Source of the DNA: Atractiella rhizophila
Taxonomy: Eukaryota
Assembly (NCBI GenBank): GCA_021432655.1
Contig: MU271443.1
Coordinates: 45,143-65,142, forward strand
Direction: 5' to 3'
Length of the DNA stretch: 20,000 nucleotides
The notes beneath the pieces are model-generated. The model saw nothing but the letters and a program-made list of their open reading frames with translations, was not told the DNA's origin and searched no databases. A program made the position numbers and the translations under genes. Shown here one piece after another: positions 2-18,279 of this stretch. The stretch's first letter is position 1. Every line of letters begins with the position of its first letter.

Positions 2-585
2 GCTCACACTACCGAGTTTTGCGGATTTTCCCTTCTCGTTTGCCCACGCTCGCAAGATGACCCTCTACGCTGCGGCTACATCAAGCGAAAGGACATGCCT
101 GCTCACGAGAGAGTATGCCTAAGATACGCGTATGTCTCTCATATCACTCCTATTTAAAAAAACATAATTTTTCCACAGGTGTAACAATCGCGCACACGGC
201 TGCTTGTGGGAAGGACCGGAAGAAGATGTTATGGCATGGATTCTTCCTTGCGGCTTGTCCGCGGCTAACTTAGTCACAGGTTCATGAAGACTGGTGCAAT
301 CAACTACACTTTACGCACCAACGAGCCCGTGCAGAAAACGAACAACTCCGTCAGAGAAATGAGCACCTCAAAGTGCAAATTTTGGAGGAACAGAGGAGAG
401 CGGCCTCTGCTGAAGCACAAACGCACCGTTTGGAGGAAGAAACGCACCGTTTGGAGGAAGAAACGCACCGTTTGGAGGAAGAAACGCACCGTTTGGAGGA
501 AGAAACGCACCGTTTGGAGGAAGAAACGCACCGTTTGGCAGAGGAACGCAAGAAAGGAGAAGAAGGTTTGGTACAAGCACCTTGA
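2..585 (+). CDS. 3' part of a TRAF/SINA-type zinc-finger protein with C-terminal coiled coil; join(<2..129,179..233,280..585)
   Basis: Manual splicing (GT-AG intron 130-178; GC-AG intron 234-279 with GCTAAC branch site) gives AHTTEFCGFSLLVCPRSQDDPLRCGYIKRKDMPAHERVCLRYACNNRAHGCLWEGPEEDVMVHEDWC. This has consecutive TRAF-like C/H fingers (CxNxxxGCxWxGx7Hx3C), then an E/Q/R-rich helix with THRLEEE heptads and TGA at 583-585. The start lies upstream of the window. Confidence 0.75.
419..538 (+). repeat. Perfect 21-bp coding minisatellite (AAACGCACCGTTTGGAGGAAG x5.7) encoding THRLEEE heptads
   Basis: Five identical units start at 419, 440, 461, 482 and 503, plus a 15-bp partial unit at 524-538. 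Confidence 0.97.
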
Positions 586-1232
586 GTTGAAATGGCAACA
601 GGAGAAAGAACTTGCATGAATGATGCGAACCCTTCTACATTTTCTACCGAATTTAGATCGTCCAAAGATAAATTGGAAACGTTAACGTTATAAGTACTCT
701 TTTCCGTAGGTAGAGTATGATTAAATGGTTCAGACCGCGCCGTTAAGGAGAGACCGGAGGAAGACCTCGAGTTTCTCATCTCCCTTGGTGTCGAGAGTGT
801 ACCGAACCTCAGACTTCTTAAAACCATTGAACTGTCCCATTCATTAGTATAGTGTGTGAGAGCAGGACAAAAGAACCGACCTGACTCGCGGCACAAATAG
901 TGTATGCTCCCATATTCTCCCACTTCAACCAATCTCCCACTTCCAGGTCCGTTGGCAACGGTGCGTCTTTGGCGACGAGATCGATAGAGTCGCAAGTCGG
1001 ACCCCAAACTGAGCACTTCTCTGTATCAGTGTACAAAGCAGCTTGATCAACTTGAGCTTGGAAGATGCCGTTAAGAGTGAGAATTTTGGGGAAGACGATC
1101 TGGTGGTCGAACATCGTGCAGTTGAACGCTCCATAAACGCCGTCGTTGATATAATCTGTCTCATTCTGATTAGCAGATGAACCTTGGACAACAAGAAAAC
1201 GTACACATGGAAGAAGGAGACTCTTCGTCGCT
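537..1232. repeat. Direct segmental duplication, copy A (partner 2001-2692)
   Basis: Aligns from GGCAGAGGAACGCAAG to CTCTTCGTCGCT with 2001-2692 at an offset of 1464, then 1460. Differences are scattered substitutions and two small indels in the non-coding part. Confidence 0.97.
730..1232 (-). pseudogene. 5'-truncated duplicate of ornithine decarboxylase (end of exon 2, intron 2, exon 3 1155-881, intron 3, exon 4 831-730); reading frame intact
   Basis: Encodes YINDGVYGAFNC...WGPTCDSID...GAYTICAASQ/FNGFKKSEVRY...LLNGAV* with conserved GT-AG sites, but lacks the PLP-binding barrel. An in-frame TAA lies a few codons upstream of the duplication junction in the exon-2 frame. Confidence 0.85.
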
Positions 1233-1580: not shown

Positions 1581-2000
1581 GGAAGGCACATTATGCTGTC
1601 ATGTTATGGTTCATCTAGTTTATCATTCGTCTTTCGATCTTCTTGCTCAGTGAATCAAATCAACTTATCGTCGCAACTATTAGTCTTAGCGGTCTTGATT
1701 GTATTGTATGTACTTTACCATCTATGGTGCTTATGGTTCAGACAATTTATTGGGATATGTTGAACAAAGTCATTGCAGTGCCTGCTACTCGTCGTTGAGA
1801 CCTCGCTCTATTCGCCGTGTTATGTGTATGGGAGCCCATGCTTCACCTTACGCTATCGTGGTCACTCTTGGTCACTCTTACATTAAGGATAGGTAGCGAA
1901 GTCAATTGCACGGGGACACTAAACGAGATGCTCCTTAATTGAGAATCGTTAACCAGACTTCGGACGGAACGCAACAGGCATCGAAACCGAGATACCAGAA

Positions 2001-2692
2001 GGCAGAGGAACGCAAGAAAGGAGAAGAAGGTTTGGTACAAGCACCTTGAGTTGAAATGGCAACAGGAGAGAGAACTTGCATGAATGATGCGAACCCTTCT
2101 ACATTTTCTACCGAATTTAGATCGTCCAAAGATAAATTGAAAACGTTATAAGTACTCTTTTCCATAAGTCGAGAGTATCGTTAGATGGTTCAGACCGCGC
2201 CGTTAAGGAGAGACCGGAGGAAGACCTCTAGTTTCTCATCTCCCTTGGTATCGAGAGTGTACCGAACTTCAGACTTCTTAAAACCATTGAACTGTTCCGT
2301 TCATCAGTATAGTAAAGGAAAACAGAACAAAAGAACCAACCTGACTCGCGGCACAAATAGTGTATGCTCCCATATTCTCCCACTTCAACCAATCTCCCAC
2401 TTGCAGGTCCGTTGGCAACGGTGCGTCTTTGGCGACGAGGTCGATAGAGTCGCAAGTCGGACCCCAAACTGAGCACTTTTCTGTATCCGTGTACAAAGCG
2501 GCTTGATCACCTTGAGGTTGAAAGATGCCGTTAAGAGTGAGAATTTTGGGGAAGACGATCTGGTGGTCGAACATCGTGCAGTTGAACGCTCCATAAACGC
2601 CGTCGTTGATATAATCTGTCTCATTCTGATCAGCAGATGAACCTTGGACAACAAGAAAACGTACACATGGAAGAAGGAGACTCTTCGTCGCT
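2001..2692. repeat. Direct segmental duplication, copy B (contains the 3' end of the complete ODC gene)
   Basis: Aligns with 537-1232. Confidence 0.97.
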
Positions 2693-3803
2693 CTCCGGAG
2701 GACTAAATCCACTAGATTCTTCAACTCCATCCTTCCCTCTCTTCGCAATTACATTGGTAGCGAGCTCGAAAGCATCTGCAACGAAGTATCTTCCAGGCTC
2801 TGCAATGACGCGAACCTTGTCTCCAGGGAAAAACTTGTCCAAGCTATTCCTGATACATCTCGCGGCATCCTCGAAAATATCGTTCTCGAAACCGCCACCA
2901 ATATCGAGGAAGTCAAAGTCGAAGCCTTCTTCCTTTCCAATGTCGAAAGCAACTTTGGCACGGTGCAGAGCATCCTCGTAAGCGAGAGGGTCCTTGTTTC
3001 CGGATCCGACATGGAAAGCAATACCGATGACGTTCATTCCGGTCTCTTTTGCCTTCTTGAGCAATCGACGAACATCCGTCAATTTCGCGCCAAACTTCAA
3101 GCCGAGCTTGCAAAGACTGGCGCTGTCGTCCGTCAAGATTCTGAGGACGAGTTTCGCATTGGGATTGAACTTTTGAACCTTGACAATTTCTTCTTCATTG
3201 TCGAAGGTCATCATTTGAACACCTTGTTTGGCCGACTTCCTGATAAAGGATGACGCCTTGCACGGGTTGGCATAGATAATGCGGGAAGGAGGGACACCGA
3301 GCGATAAAACAGAGGAGATTTCACTCTGTGATGCGCAGTCGAACCCTAGACCAAGGGTTGCGAGCAGGTGCAGAACGCAGGGATCGGGATTGGCTTTGAC
3401 AGCTATTGAATGGAATGAGCCACGTTCCACCTCCTTGTGAAAGAGACCTACCAAAAAAAGGGTCAACGCGTCCACCCAACTCCTTCTGCCACCTTTGCCA
3501 TTGGTTCCAAACCCTGACGAGGTCGCAGACGAAGAAAGCGTTCTCTCCCTCTCCTTCGCACTCGTCGATATCGATCCCCCGAAGTTCGTTCTCGAAGACC
3601 GAATCAATGCTTCCGGAGTAAATATGAGGCAGAGGCTCGCTGTATTTTGGAGGCGGAAGCGGGAGGAGGGAGGGAGTGGTCGGTTCGGAGGCACCGTGAA
3701 GTGTGACTACCGTTTGGAGAGAAGGGGAGGAGGGCATACTGAAGGAATCGTATTTTTGAGGGAATCGGGGAGCATCTTGAGATACAGTCACAGTTGTGTT
3801 CAT
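2190..3803 (-). CDS. SPE1: Ornithine decarboxylase, 488 aa; complement(join(2190..2291,2341..2615,2665..3402,3452..3803))
   Basis: Hallmark motifs are present after removing three 49-nt GT-AG introns: PFFAVKANP (PLP lysine), GFDCAS, IIYANPCK, FHVGSG, LDIGGGF, AEPGRYF, YYINDGVYGAFN, WGPTCDSID and MGAYT. The spliced length of 1467 nt is a multiple of 3. Confidence 0.97.
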
Positions 3804-4033
3804 TTTTGCTCTAGTGTCGACGGGGGCCGATTAGATTTGGCTATGTTCCTTTTCTTCCGCTGGCGATGGGTATTGAATTGTGTGAGTTTAAATATCCGCG
3901 ATAGATTGATTGAAGCGGGGAGGTGACTGTTCGAGGTCGAGGGGATGGAGAAATAAGTGAAATATCTAGGTGAATAAAAATCCTGTATAAACAGTCCTCG
4001 ACTCGTAGGATGCCTCTGAGAGGTGAAGAGCAA
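3800..4033 (-). promoter_or_regulatory. Candidate non-AUG upstream ORF (uCC-like) in the ODC 5' leader; stop overlaps the ODC start (AUGA)
   Basis: Frame is open from 4057 to TGA 3802-3800. Near-cognate starts are TTG 4033 (GCC TTG), ACG, CTG, ATA and ATC. The C-terminus reads FNTHRQRKKRNIAKSNRPPSTLEQK*. There is no ATG on the - strand between 3804 and 4263. Confidence 0.6.
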
Positions 4034-4991
4034 GGCCCAGGCTAGGCCTGCCCCGATTTAATGACGGCTGATGCGGCAACTCCTCCTCGCTCTAGCCAGA
4101 GCGAGGCGACTAGATCGATAGGAGGATGAAAGGATAGGATGAACCGGGGAACTCGATAGCACGACAAAACCGGTTCAGTCGCTCAAACGGGGTGTAGTTC
4201 GAGTGAAGGATGTTAGGGTGGTTCCAAGCAAACCCTCCAGGTGTAACCCTTCGCCACAACGCTCATCAACCCCGATTCCGCGCCAACAAAAAAAGCACCC
4301 ACCTGGATGAGTCGAAGATCAGTGATCCGCCTCTTTGTTAGGGATAATATCTTGGAAAAAGGGAGATTAAGATCCCTTTTGGTAGTAAAAGGATCTCCCT
4401 CGAGGCCTTTTACTGTCGGGAATGTGCGCTGGCAAGATGCGAGGATTTCGCTGGCGTCGTCGTTGAGTCAAGTGATGGCTCGCGGATTTTCTGGGGTGGC
4501 AAACAAACTTTGATCCGGCCTTCTTTCACAAATAGCAAGTCGCGTGAATGTACGCGTAGTCCTCACAAGGCAATCGCCGACTTCAAAATCAATTCTTGTT
4601 TTCATTTTTTTTTGGTGAGAATTATAAGCTCATTCAGCATTCAAGCTTCCAATAAGTGTCCGTGTCTCTCAATACTACAATCTTTCTCACATCCTTACTT
4701 TTATTTCGAGCTGAAGATTCAGACTTTTATTTATCAAACACGACGCTTTGCCATAAATTTAATGACAGCAACGTTGCTAGTAGTTGAATAAATGATATTA
4801 GGCTAGTGCCATTGCAAAATCTCCTCATGCTCGAACCTTGCTGAGTATCGAAAGATCCTATGGCTTGTTGCCTTTGTGCGAGTTTTCGTCGCTTTGCACA
4901 AAGGAATGCCACACCTATAAAGCCATAAAGCTTCAATGATCCCACTAACCTTCACAACACAAGACCATCCGATATTCCACGCTGGAGAAGT

Positions 4992-5681
4992 ATGGTTCAC
5001 GCACAATTTCGACTCATTTCACTCGCCCTTACCCCAGAAGAGGCATCCTCCATCGCGGGCCACAGAGGGTATCCCCTGCTGTACGAGAAGGACTCTCATT
5101 ATCAGATCCATCTTCTCCCCAAGATGGGTGGCAACCAAGAGCACACCGCCAAATTCTGTCTTCACCTGCAATCCGATTGGATGAAGGACACAGTGCCGTT
5201 CACACCGGAAGAAGAAACGGATTTCGGCTTCACAGTCCAGGACGGCAAGATCGTCTATGGGAAGATGAAGGTATTGGAAGAAGTTGTTGAGGACAAGGAA
5301 GAAACAAATGGACAGCTGATCGTCAGCGAGAAGAAACACCGATGCAACCTGAGATGTGAAGAAGAAATGCGATACTTCGACGAGACGATGATTCAACATC
5401 TTCGGAAGAAGGAAGCACTTTGGCTGCTCGACGACGAGTTATTTGTGTTCACGCGCACCTTGGAGATTAGGATAGAAGAAATGACGAAGAGGGGAGAGAT
5501 GGACGCAGTGGAGAGCGAAATGTGGGACCGTTACATCTTGTTTCTCAACATGGAGCTGTTAATAGGCAGAGTTCCACAGTTTGTGAGGACGCTAGTGGCA
5601 GATGGGACTGAAACGTCCATTAATCTGTTTGGAGTGTTTCAATACCTCGCGGGGGGTCATGGTCGCTTCATTCGCTCTTGA
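4992..5681 (+). CDS. Hypothetical protein (~229 aa ORF, acidic, helical-looking); true 5' end uncertain
   Basis: Long ORF with protein-like composition. A possible donor GTATGG at 4990 and acceptor CAG at 5035-5037 suggest further upstream exons. No recognisable domain. Confidence 0.55.
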   Translation: MVHAQFRLISLALTPEEASSIAGHRGYPLLYEKDSHYQIHLLPKMGGNQEHTAKFCLHLQSDWMKDTVPFTPEEETDFGFTVQDGKIVYGKMKVLEEVVEDKEETNGQLIVSEKKHRCNLRCEEEMRYFDETMIQHLRKKEALWLLDDELFVFTRTLEIRIEEMTKRGEMDAVESEMWDRYILFLNMELLIGRVPQFVRTLVADGTETSINLFGVFQYLAGGHGRFIRS

Positions 5682-8811: not shown

Positions 8812-9015
8812 NNNNNNNNNNNNNNNNNNNNNNNNNNNNNNNNNNNNNNNNNNNNNNNNNNNNNNNNNNNNNNNNNNNNNNNNNNNNNNNNNNNNNNNNN
8901 NNNNNNNNNNNNNNNNNNNNNNNNNNNNNNNNNNNNNNNNNNNNNNNNNNNNNNNNNNNNNNNNNNNNNNNNNNNNNNNNNNNNNNNNNNNNNNNNNNNN
9001 NNNNNNNNNNNNNNN
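8812..9015. other. Assembly gap (N run)
   Basis: Ns in the sequence. Confidence 1.
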
Positions 9016-11707: not shown

Positions 11708-14125
11708 ATGGCCGTCACTAAACCCAAGCCCAACTCACGTCCCCGTGGGCAGGGCAGCTCTTCTGGTGGGAAGATGAAGAAGTCAACGAAACGGTTCCAA
11801 GCCAAGCAGTTAGGAGGGGTCATCAAGGCCAGGAAGAAGGCACAAGAGTTCAAGAGGAAGGTGGACAGGAGACAACTGCTGAGGAATAAGGGGAAGGGAA
11901 AGGAAAAGCAGGAGGTAGAAGACGGCGGAGAGGACGCGTGAGTTTTATTTTCGTTGGTTCGGGAGAGGAAGAGGGTTGAGCATTTATTCTGCAGGGAGGT
12001 GGATGATGAAGACGAAGACTTGATGGATGTCGATAAGTTGCTGGAAGGCAATTTTTCGGACGACGAAATCTCGAACCGTAAAAAACCTGGAAAAGGCAAA
12101 GCAAAGGCTGAGCCTGTGGCTCCAGCTTCCGAGGACGATGATGAGGAGGAAGAAGACGACGATCTAGCGGATCTCCCGGATGCAGAAGCAGCCCATATCA
12201 ACACTCTTCAAGGACTGGCTACCAAGGATCCAGAGTTCTATAAGTATCTACAGGAGCACGATGCCGATTTGCTAAACTTTGGCCTCGAGTCGGATGGAGG
12301 TGCGAGGTTCAGTTTACTGTCTAGGAAGATGTATAGGCTAATTATGACACAGATAACGAAGAGGATGAGGATGAGCAGGAAGAGGAGCAGCCAAAAAGCA
12401 AGAAGCGTAAACGCTCGGATGAGGAGGACGAGGAGCAAGTCCTCACGCTGTCTACCGTCCGTAACTGGCAGCGATCCATTCTCAAGGCAAACTTCTCTCC
12501 CTTATTCTTCGTCCGCTACTCATGAAGAGAGATTAGACGCGTTCCCTCAAATCACTCCGCTCCCTCCTTCAAGCTTTTCGGTCCGCTTCCCTTCCCACAA
12601 ACACTACCACCACCCAGCCTTCTCTCTACACCATCCAATCTCCAGTCGTATACAGCAAAGTCCTCCGCACCTCTCTCGCCTACACCCCCGTCGTCCTCTC
12701 CACCCACTACCCACCCAAAACGCACGCATCCGGAAAAGTGACCGTGAAACAAAATGCGCACACGAGCAAGATCGCAAAGTCCTACTTCTCCTCTCTCCTC
12801 TCTTTATGGCCTACCCTGTCGGATGCTGACTTGAAGAGATTCGCGGTTGTGAAGGGTGGCGAAATGGCTCCGTGGCTTGGAGGTGGGAGGAATAAGAGGG
12901 AGTGGATCAGATTGCTTGTCCCCAACGCGACACGGAATAGCCTCCGGTCCCTCTACTGTTATCTGGTCTTCAGATACGACACCCGCTAAACGGTACACAT
13001 TTGTAGGATAGCGTAAGTAGAGTTACATGGAAGTAGCGACATCCTTTCTTCAAACTTGAGTGGAACACAAAGGGAACTTATCGAACAGCCTCGTGGTTGC
13101 GCTAAACAGCTTATATGGGTATGCGATCGACTATTCACAGGGGGAGGTAGGGAGGGAGGCAGTAGCACTTATCAAGCCGCCGTCTTAAGAAGTACTCTAA
13201 CTATACGCCTTCTCATACCTGCAACCAAAAGAACGTAAACGAGTGTTTTCGGCATATTTACCGGACGCGGTTAAGTATAGTTAGCAGTTCGTGTCAACTC
13301 TACTTTCTCTAACGCTGCTTGTCTGTTCTAAAGGAGAGAGCGAAAGGGAAGACTGCTCGAGTCGTAGAAGGAATATCGCTGCTCTCGCCTGGTGAAAGTG
13401 AAGTAGGAGGGGGAGAACTGAGGTTCGTAGTNNNNNNNNNNNNNNNNNNNNNNNNNCGTTATTTTTCTAATTTCTATCCCAAGCCGATTTACGATTCCGC
13501 AAACAGACTCGTGCCCACTTCCCGCTACCATCCCTTTCGTCTCCATGTCCTCCACTCCTTCCTCCGCCTCGTCCAACGCACGGGGACCTTCATACCCCTT
13601 GCTCCATTCATCATTTCCGTCCTTTCATCCCCCGAAATCTCGAGCGGGAAAAACAGCACTCTCAAGCCACTCCCGTTCAATTTTATCGTCAAGGCTCCAC
13701 AACAGTATTCAAAGACGCGAGTATACGGTGACGGATTACTTGAAGAGGGAACATACTTCCTCGCCGAATACCTCGCCGCTCTCTCCCCGAATGTCGCCTT
13801 CCCCGAACTCGTAATTCCCATCCTGATTACGCTCAGGAAAGCATTGAAGAAGACTCGGAATCCGAAATACACTGCGAGTATCAAACCGTTGGTGGAGAAG
13901 ATTGAGGCGAACGTGAAAGTGGTGGAAGAGAAGAGGAGAGAGGTGGAATTTTCGCCCAGCGATAGGGCCGAACTGGTCAGGTGGAAGCGGGAAGAAGAGG
14001 CGGAGAAGACACCACTAGGCGTGTGGGTGAAGACACTGAGGAAGCAGAGGAGAAGACGAGAGGAAATTCTGGAGAAAGCGGCGAGGGAAGGAGGGGCGGA
14101 TGTGGATGCAATGGAGGAAGAGTAG
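11708..14125 (+). CDS. NOC2: Nucleolar complex protein Noc2; exons 11708-11937, 11995-12299, 12353-12486, 12537-~12916, [interrupted/gap], 13507-14125
   Basis: Motifs KKSTKRFQAKQL, LATKDPEFYKYLQEHDADLLNF, SLKSLRSLLQAFRSA, LVPTSRYHPFRLH, TGTFIPLAP, LKPLPFNFIVKAP, VAFPELVIP and VEFSPSD. The central conserved part (IRQLA/VYNWQ region) is absent, replaced by foreign sequence plus a gap. Confidence 0.93.
12917..13431. mobile_element. Foreign insertion in a NOC2 exon, possibly the end of an LTR/transposon (starts TGT, runs into a gap)
   Basis: Noc2-like sequence stops at ...KREWIRLL. The following TGTCCCCAAC.. is not a consensus splice donor, and the segment is non-coding, TpA-rich and ends at an N gap. 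Confidence 0.4.
13432..13456. other. Assembly gap (N run; true size probably larger)
   Basis: Ns; a substantial central part of Noc2 is unaccounted for. Confidence 1.
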
Positions 14126-16204: not shown

Positions 16205-18279
16205 CTACAGTTCCGCATCATCCATCTCCTGATCTTCCAGACCAAGCCGATTGACCCTCTCCACCAAATCCTCATCAAGGAGCTCATCGGTATTGATCTT
16301 TGGGATGTCCTCATCGTCCCCATCACCGCTCACACTTTCCATCTCGACGTCCCCTCCCTTCTTGTCCTTCTTATCGACTTCCATCCCATCCTCTTTCTTC
16401 TTCTTGAACAATTGAATGTTCGCTCTCAGATCTTCATCCTCCTCCAAATCCTGCAAGAATCGCTCATAATCGTCATCCTGTCGTTTCTCTTCCCCTCTAT
16501 CCCTTCCTCGTCCAGCTGCNNNNNNNNNNNNNNNNNNNNNNNNNNNNNNNNNNNNNNNNNNNNNNNNNNNNNNNNNNNNNNNNNNNNNNNNNNNNNNNNN
16601 NNNNNNNNNNNNNNNNNNNNNNNNNNNNNNNNNNNNNNNNNNNNNNNNNNNNNNNNNNNNNNNNNNNNNNNNNNNNNNNNNNNNNNNNNNNNNNNNNNNN
16701 NNNNNNNNNNNNNNNNNNNNNNNNNNNNNNNNNNNNNNNNNNNNNNNNNNNNNNNNNNNNNNNNNNNNNNNNNNNNNNNNNNNNNNNNNNNNNNNNNNNN
16801 NNNNNNNNNNNNNNNNNNNNNNNNNNNNNNNNNNNNNNNNNNNNNNNNNNNNNNNNNNNNNNNNNNNNNNNNNNNNNNNNNNNNNNNNNNNNNNNNNNNN
16901 NNNNNNNNNNNNNNNNNNNNNNNNNNNNNNNNNNNNNNNNNNNNNNNNNNNNNNNNNNNNNNNNNNNNNNNNNNNNNNNNNNNNNNNNNNNNNNNNNNNN
17001 NNNNNNNNNNNNNNNNNNNNNNNNNNNNNNNNNNNNNNNNNNNNNNNNNNNNNNNNNNNNNNNNNNNNNNNNNNNNNNNNNNNNNNNNNNNNNNNNNNNN
17101 NNNNNNNNNNNNNNNNNNNNNNNNNNNNNNNNNNNNNNNNNNNNNNNNNNNNNNNNNNNNNNNNNNNNNNNNNNNNNNNNNNNNNNNNNNNNNNNNNNNN
17201 NNNNNNNNNNNNNNNNNNNNNNNNNNNNNNNNNNNNNNNNNNNNNNNNNNNNNNNNNNNNNNNNNNNNNNNNNNNNNNNNNNNNNNNNNNNNNNNNNNNN
17301 NNNNNNNNNNNNNNNNNNNNNNNNNNNNNNNNNNNNNNNNNNNNNNNNNNNNNNNNNNNNNNNNNNNNNNNNNNNNNNNNNNNNNNNNNNNNNNNNNNNN
17401 NNNNNNNNNNNNNNNNNNNNNNNNNNNNNNNNNNNNNNNNNNNNNNNNNNNNNNNNNNNNNNNNNNCCATCAGCAAAAAATCTAGAACAATAGGTAGAAA
17501 AAACGAACTTTCCGGGAATGGTGCTCATGAGAAACTCCACCATCTTGTTCGCATGTTGTTTCGAAGCATAGTGAAAATCCAACCCATTCTTCACCTCTTT
17601 CACACTCAACGTATTCTGATCGGCGTTTTGCTTCAAGATCAATTGCTCGAGGTACAGAAACGTCCGTTTGTGATCGACTTTTTGGGGACTTGTACGATTG
17701 ATTTCCAAGTCTGTTTTGAAGCGAGGCGGGCACAGTCGCCACATTGCGTATGGGCCACGACAAACTCGACTTCGAAAAATTTGTTGCAAAACACAGTGGA
17801 AGTCAAAACCTTTGTTTTTGCAAAATAGCCGTTGAACACCGTTTTGCTTAGTGAGATGAGCAAATACGCACTTCCTTTTGAACAGTTAATTTCACTCGCA
17901 ATCGCTTGCTATGCGGTTCAGTCCAAATGAACCCTGCATCAATCAGCCTGATCTTATTCAATCCTTTCAGCCGTCTGAGACAAATTGCCAACAACTCTCT
18001 TGACTCGAGTTCAGCGGGTAGCCAAGATTGAGGAGGTGAGAGATAGCGGTTGCAGTTCTTGCAGTAGGAGATAGAAGACTGTTTGGGTATCTCAGATGTG
18101 ATATCGACGCTAGTTCTACAGTCAACCAGATATTTGGGTGGCAAGAGAAGAAAAACATGCCTGCTCCGTAAGCAGTTCACACAGAGGCCAGCACTATTGG
18201 GCTCGATAAGGGTTCCACAGTCAGCGCAAAGGATGTAGGACTGCTGGGGTTGGGCGGGAGGGACGTATGCAGTGGTCAT
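16205..18279 (-). CDS. NMD3: 60S export adaptor Nmd3 (middle in assembly gap; apparent indel errors at ~17790-17770 and ~17685)
   Basis: Motifs ILCADCGTLIEPNSAGLCVNCLR, YCKNCNRYL, WLPAELESRELLAICLRRLKGLNKIRLIDAGFIWTEPHSKRLRVK, QCGDC, QKVDHKRTFLYLEQLILK and C-terminal DYERFLQDLEEDEDLRANIQLFK. Introns are 18160-18110 (GC-AG), 17871-17810 and one starting at 17508. Confidence 0.96.
16520..17466. other. Assembly gap (N run)
   Basis: Ns in the sequence. Confidence 1.

Follow-up and report, generated by a model that had tools for sequence, protein, structure and literature searches.

Introduction

Is synthesis of ornithine decarboxylase (ODC) in Atractiella rhizophila governed by an upstream reading frame that has no AUG? 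The question is raised by the window analysed here, a 20,000-nucleotide stretch of contig MU271443.1 that contains the ODC gene of this root fungus of the Pucciniomycotina, in four exons on the minus strand. Directly upstream of the gene lies a stop-free frame of 85 codons whose stop codon overlaps the ODC start, and the original prediction, made from the letters of the DNA, took this frame for a candidate polyamine-sensing translational switch. The sequence observation behind that prediction is real, and its interpretation as a polyamine switch is plausible, partly supported and unproven. The leader as a whole most likely controls ODC translation.

Upstream frames of this sort, termed upstream conserved coding regions (uCCs), have been found in the leaders of ODC homologues from animals, Pezizomycotina, Basidiomycota and Zygomycota. 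They are 22-100 codons long, nearly always begin with a non-AUG codon (mostly AUU in good context, also UUG and ACG) and almost always carry two adjacent prolines near the C-terminus (PMC2811004). The basidiomycete ODC uCC was described by Ivanov, Loughran and Atkins in 2008, as summarised in PMC2811004. This kind of element has therefore been in print for Basidiomycota since 2008, and the candidate is at best another example of it. Our literature search found no paper on the ODC of Atractiella.

Results

The ODC leader is transcribed, spliced and free of AUG codons

Transcript data were taken from Logan contigs of four runs (X19, X1, X2 and X6), two of which are labelled as metatranscriptomic RNA, one of which is guessed to be RNA and one of which is unlabelled. 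Because the three introns of the ODC coding region are absent from these contigs, we conclude that they derive from RNA. The gene is identified by its protein: exon 2, when translated, matches at 100% identity P0001, a hypothetical protein that a public source assigns to Atractiella rhizophila, and the complete spliced translation is P0001 (488 aa). Other ODC relatives, among the matches listed, are at most 66% identical and belong to Microbotryomycetes and Pucciniomycetes.

Overlapping RNA contigs run from ODC exon 1 through the entire candidate frame to position 4451 (for example X1 records 6 and 7, X2 records 18 and 19, and X19 record 13), and the candidate frame is covered by contigs of all four runs. 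The original prediction had named beforehand one outcome that would speak against it, a transcript starting downstream of all the near-cognate codons in the frame; the contigs instead extend upstream of every one of them.

The leader contains an intron (Table 1) whose GT..AG ends lie on the minus strand, which fixes the strand of the transcript. Depths of the RNA contig bins in X19, X1 and X2 fit complete splicing of this intron, and its retention was not seen in those bins. On the minus strand no ATG occurs between 3803 and 4266, and the next one upstream is at 4605. The mature leader is thus AUG-free, because the sole ATG between 3803 and 4605, that at 4266, sits in the spliced-out intron. 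All four runs share a coverage gap at 4475-4795, which is a weak hint of a transcription start near 4451-4474, contigs being unable to show the end of an RNA. Counted from 4451-4474 the mature leader is about 600 nt long, and a length of 617 nt was used in the shuffles.

We compared this leader with 5000 dinucleotide-preserving shuffles of the mature 617-nt sequence, with mononucleotide shuffles alongside. A count of zero AUGs was reached in 0.8% of the dinucleotide shuffles, where the mean was 3.97. For the 460-nt stretch immediately upstream of ODC, the original prediction was right that no ATG is present and too high in its expectation of about 7; the shuffles give 3.4 expected ATGs and a probability of 1.5% for none. 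The absence of AUG is a stronger signal of departure from chance than the open frame of the leader. A second copy of the leader was sought within the window and none was found.

Table 1. Coordinates of the features of the ODC gene and its leader, as positions in the window
Feature	Position	Strand	Details
ODC coding region	2190..3803	-	exons 3803-3452, 3402-2665, 2615-2341 and 2291-2190; joints in RNA contigs
ODC introns	3451-3403, 2664-2616, 2340-2292	-	RNA contig joints 2291/2341, 2615/2665 and 3402/3452
ODC start codon ATG	3801..3803	-	annotated start of the 488-aa protein P0001
5' leader, second exon part	3804..4248	-	RNA contigs X1 records 6 and 7, X2 records 18 and 19, X19 record 13
54-nt leader intron, GT..AG	4249..4302	-	joint 4247/4302 in X19, X1 and X2; contains ATG 4266-4264
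First leader exon, 5' end approximate	4303..4474	-	longest RNA contig to 4451; last covered bin 4368-4474
Candidate AUG-less upstream frame	3800..4057	-	85 sense codons 4057-3803 plus TGA 3802-3800; preceded by in-frame TAA 4060-4058
TTG, most upstream plausible near-cognate start	4031..4033	-	G at -3 and C at +4; 77 codons to the stop; use putative
Basic patch HRQRKKRN of the candidate frame	3845..3868	-	variant 3854 keeps Lys (AAG to AAA)
Arg-Pro-Pro-Ser codons CGG CCC CCG TCG	3818..3829	-	proposed pause site, pausing putative
Second upstream frame, first part, 55 codons	4303..4467	-	after TGA 4470-4468; 0 differences in 150 nt, X1 record 7
Second upstream frame, last 11 codons GYTWRVCLEPP plus TAA 4215-4213	4213..4248	-	sense codons 4248-4216; ends Glu-Pro-Pro-UAA
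Perfect 9-bp hairpin with 4-nt loop, between the two upstream frames	4085..4106	-	leader fold as a whole not significant (z = -1.5)

An 85-codon frame without AUG ends on the ODC start codon

The frame was recovered exactly where it had been predicted, at 4057-3803, without an in-frame ATG and with its TGA (3802-3800) overlapping the ODC ATG (3803-3801) in the sequence AAA ATG A. The encoded peptide ends in ...FNTHRQRKKRNIAKSNRPPSTLEQK*, that is, ...HRQRKKRNIAKSNRPPSTLEQK, and its last residues are RPPSTLEQK. The Pro-Pro codons occupy 3826-3821, at positions -8/-7 from the stop.

That only near-cognate starts are on offer from TTG 4033 onwards agrees with the list of in-frame codons, which comprises ATC 4057, TTG 4033, AGG 4015, ACG 4006, CTG 3994 and ATA 3988, followed by ATC 3946, ATC 3910, ATA 3895 and ATA 3844. 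Both TTG 4033 and CTG 3994 have G at -3 and no G at +4, and ACG 4006 has C at -3. The only in-frame near-cognate with A at -3 together with G at +4 is ATA 3844, which is of a weak type. Depending on which start is used, the upstream open reading frame (uORF) would comprise 14 to 85 codons, and 77 from TTG 4033. Near-cognate codons with a purine at -3 are present in all three frames of the leader.

The position of the frame and its prolines are less common in shuffled leaders. [quoted passage not shown]

Seven matches to the 85-residue peptide were returned from a library of 1.84 billion representatives, with E values of 5e-6 to 9e-4. These proteins are 490-1228 aa long and each has 4-5 stretches that align to query residues 7-50; we rejected them as repetitive sequence rather than uCC relatives.

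The leader varies less between strains than the coding region

The four runs diverge from the assembly by 1-5%. The differences listed here are the best supported ones, and 61 further, less well supported differences fall on 1800-5000. The ODC coding sequence (CDS) has 24 listed differences, 4 of which change the protein; since the other 20 are synonymous, we take the CDS differences to be natural variation under selection. The leader has three listed ones, at 3854, 4007 and 4171. Contig pieces confined to the leader differ at 8 of 620 nt (1.3%), compared with 58 of 1974 nt (2.9%) in those X2 and X6 pieces that belong to the CDS (Fisher p = 0.027). Divergence is uneven along the leader in X1, where none of the 150 nt at 4302-4451 (record 7) differs, as against 6 of 178 nt at 4070-4247.

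Exactly two substitutions fall within the candidate frame in X19 and X6, namely 3854 (AAG to AAA, Lys) and 4007 (CCT to CCC, Pro). Both are third-position changes that are synonymous in the candidate frame and non-synonymous in both other frames.

Two further observations concern variation along the mRNA. X19 shows both letters at 2735, 3083, 3104 and 4171, each at about one third to one half of the depth, which suggests two alleles whose source is either a dikaryon or a sample of mixed origin. Strains differ most, along the mRNA, in the ODC 3' untranslated region (UTR; 1959-2190, about 230 nt), with 9 listed substitutions as well as indels at 2141 (6 nt inserted), 2170 (2 missing) and 2178 (3 missing).

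Searches for related loci

When metagenome contigs were scanned with ODC exon 2, one of 162 pattern matches was confirmed as a locus (L001), and no leader of a close relative was obtained. The ODC of L001 is 54% identical, intronless and AT-rich, and its leader has ATGs and no comparable frame. In a scan of genome contigs with an alignment of 17 ODC proteins (A1), 80 of 82 relatives were retained, all of them prokaryote-labelled and with at most 39% identity, and no fungal locus was among them. Two of these matches lie on short contigs filed under bacterial metagenome-assembled genomes of Betaproteobacteria and Chitinophagaceae (L002 952-2076 and L003 3-608), and their ODCs share 38-39% identity with the fungal enzyme; these may represent ODCs of eukaryote type or contigs that are contaminants. 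Most of the other prokaryote ODC matches have 21-29% identity, and one partial match has 36%.

The surrounding sequence

Downstream of the gene and on the same strand lies a 698-nt copy of the 3' part of ODC that spans the last part of exon 2 together with exons 3 and 4 and the 3' UTR (window 537-1232 versus 2001-2692, 94.6% identical). Either part of the gene has been duplicated in tandem or a second haplotype has been wrongly joined on. Within the region of this duplicated 3' end, a tandem repeat with a 21-nt unit at 284-619 encodes KRTVWRK repeats in one frame; in the list of open reading frames, the matching place after the intact ODC gene has no such expansion. The assembly gaps of the window are three runs of N at 8812-9015, 13432-13456 and 16520-17466, 1176 bases in total.

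On the other side of the gene, X19 contigs of a neighbouring transcript cover 4796-5000 and contain a joint at 4893/4950 with non-canonical TT..AC ends on the plus strand. This transcript and the ODC leader are about 320 nt apart, and the stretch between them is uncovered in the four runs.

Discussion

A candidate polyamine-sensing element in the ODC leader

The reading that we favour, tentatively and as a possibility short of a probability, is that the 85-codon frame is a polyamine-sensing AUG-less upstream element that represses ODC. The claim that it is a uCC stood in part. The frame is contained in the mRNA, in the AUG-free leader of an ODC gene; it has Pro-Pro near its C-terminus and a length in the published range (criteria from PMC2811004), and both listed differences within it are synonymous. 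Membership of the uCC class also requires a peptide that resembles the basidiomycete consensus, a near-cognate start that is conserved, amino-acid conservation among orthologues that is greatest towards the C-terminus, and polyamine-dependent repression of the main ORF; the likeness here is one of description.

The mechanism that we propose is as follows. A minority of scanning ribosomes would initiate at a near-cognate codon (TTG 4033, CTG 3994, ACG 4006 or ATA 3844), pass over the ODC AUG in a different frame and finish at the UGA within AUGA. Reinitiation after a uORF of 14-77 codons would be poor, so that each near-cognate start would cost one ODC start. When polyamines are high, eIF5A activity would become limiting and peptide-bond formation at Arg-Pro-Pro-Ser would be slowed. 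If a ribosome paused while its P site held the second Pro codon (3823-3821), its leading edge would come to lie about 4 nt before the ODC AUG, as estimated from the generally known dimensions of the ribosome footprint, and it would obstruct every scanning ribosome behind it. The resulting queue may increase initiation at weak upstream starts. On balance, polyamines would feed back negatively on the synthesis of ODC.

Other parts of the uCC claim are unsupported, and a number of observations weigh against a polyamine-sensing frame. A stop-free frame of at least 85 codons arises somewhere in 64.1% of dinucleotide shuffles of the leader (44% of mononucleotide shuffles), and the open frame by itself is ordinary for this leader. 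Its codon usage, scored with an ODC-trained model, is matched or beaten by 88% of null open frames, although the test is weak in that the genuine ODC N-terminal coding region also scores negative (90-nt windows). No candidate relative of the 85-residue peptide appeared in the word-index protein library, a weak negative because AUG-less frames are rarely predicted as proteins. The frame has no AUU, and no CUG, UUG or ACG that combines A or G at -3 with G at +4. Its end does not match the AZIN1-type PPWxxPS-stop, as that motif is given in the excerpted text of PMC10855120, since Pro-Pro is followed by Ser and the frame closes with Gln-Lys-stop. It also differs from a short AUG uORF with Pro-Ser-stop of the HOL1 type: there is no AUG, the frame has 85 codons and its Pro-Ser is separated from the end, coming 5 codons ahead of the stop.

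The strain data carry objections of their own. The chance that two of two transitions are synonymous in the candidate frame is 0.11, and 3854 and 4007 separate the assembly from all four runs and may be one lineage event. Judged from the counts per piece, the frame could contain up to 3 unlisted differences in X1 and up to 4 in X2. One X6 contig (depth 3.9) has a 1-nt insertion in the A-run at 3849/3850 that would shift the frame ahead of Pro-Pro, and a minor X2 contig (depth 2.5 of 20.9) is without one base at 3955; both are single contigs under depth 5, which may be errors. Finally, the second AUG-less frame further upstream in the leader, of 66 codons, fits the uCC description equally well.

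Alternative explanations

The high rate of long open frames in shuffles is in line with the view that no frame acts through its peptide. On this account, which we consider rather doubtful, the leader is kept AUG-free for scanning and is constrained at the RNA level by structure, protein binding, splicing or transcription signals, while the open frames and Pro-Pro codons are by-products of its C-rich, stop-poor composition. With 30% C, Pro codons are frequent in the leader. Its divergence, less than half that of the CDS though the CDS changes are mainly synonymous third-position ones, fits constraint at the nucleotide level, and the perfect 9-bp hairpin at 4106-4085 would be in keeping with structure. 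However, 3790-4248 does not fold better than shuffled sequence does (z = -1.5; 7 of 100 shuffles fold equally well), and no Rfam family matches the leader at E <= 1. The synonymous character of both listed differences in the 85-codon frame also speaks against this account, as does the published finding that, as a rule, ODC leaders of Basidiomycota carry a uCC (PMC2811004).

It is unlikely, in our judgement, that the 66-codon frame is the functional element and the 85-codon frame incidental. Initiation would then take place at a near-cognate codon close to the 5' end, and the ribosomes would be held up while terminating on Pro-Pro-stop and would stand in the way of scanning. This frame is contained in the mature mRNA, and the 54-nt intron that divides it is a multiple of 3 and stop-free in the same frame. 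Its ending suits the emphasis of a review on proline in the last or penultimate codon (PMC2811004), and the stretch without any difference in X1 falls in its region, upstream of the more variable 4070-4247. Its ODC-trained codon score of +0.02 per codon is equalled by only 1.6% of null open frames, but the true ODC N-terminal region, being negative, makes this a weak test here too. No substitution falls within the frame, hence there is no frame-specific signal, and its near-cognates (ATC 4446 and ATA 4350) belong to weak types and lack G at +4. Open frames of 66 codons are common in shuffles of the leader, and the peptide has no relatives in the protein library searched.

The two frames are compatible and both could act. 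A more elaborate proposal, which we regard as improbable, makes the leader a two-tier sensor coupled to splicing, in which the Pro-Pro-stop frame would be joined by the 85-codon frame pausing ribosomes about 4 nt before the ODC AUG. Retention of the intron would feed a true AUG (4266, in the 66-codon frame) into the Pro-Pro-stop ending and so turn a weak uORF into a strong one. The distance from TTG 4033 to the P site of a ribosome paused in the 85-codon frame is exactly 210 nt and equals seven ribosome lengths of 30 nt, a spacing that fits a queuing model and may be numerology. An N-terminal extension of ODC itself from an upstream non-AUG start is ruled out by a TAA 8 codons upstream in the ODC frame.

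Implications

Three observations are new and solid, and are useful to annotation under any mechanism: a leader of about 600 nt that is free of AUG, an unannotated intron in this leader with which its only AUG is spliced out, and the low divergence of the leader between strains, below that of the CDS. If the 85-codon frame is indeed a polyamine-sensing element, non-AUG uCC control of ODC would extend to the early-branching basidiomycete class Atractiellomycetes. The layout would then be one in which a paused ribosome stands directly before the main start codon and the upstream stop overlaps the start, and such a layout would offer a compact system in which to test how queuing affects the choice of start codon. 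Even so, no new field would be opened.

Comparison with known systems

As given in the excerpted text of PMC10855120 and PMC4505036, the HOL1 uORF (MLLLPS-stop) and the AdoMetDC uORF (MAGDIS) respond to polyamines, stall ribosomes and block scanning. They are short, AUG-initiated and stall at termination, whereas the candidate is long and AUG-less with Pro-Pro 6 codons before its stop; on the same excerpts, they are resembled more by the 66-codon Pro-Pro-stop frame than by the 85-codon frame.

The AZIN1 uCC, according to the excerpted text of PMC10855120 and PMC9788402, starts at AUU and pauses ribosomes at PPW within PPWxxPS-stop, with the involvement of eIF5A and of queuing of scanning ribosomes. 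Set against this description, the candidate is likewise a non-AUG frame upstream of an ODC homologue, with Pro-Pro at -8/-7 where AZIN1 has it at -7/-6, and the same logic is proposed for both. It differs in that AUU is absent from the frame, Pro-Pro is not followed by Trp and the end is not Pro-Ser-stop, and in a stop codon that overlaps the main AUG.

Among fungi, the leader of Neurospora crassa ODC (spe-1) represses ODC partly at the level of translation, is partly relieved of this repression by polyamine depletion, and contains a uCC (PMC2811004). A long fungal ODC leader, which in spe-1 carries the uCC, is common to both; the likeness is drawn by description, and the uCC of Pezizomycotina, of about 100 codons, is said to be of independent origin (PMC2811004). 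The basidiomycete ODC uCC is like the candidate in its place in the 5' leader of a basidiomycete ODC mRNA, in having no AUG, in a Pro-Pro close to the C-terminus and in a length within 22-100 codons.

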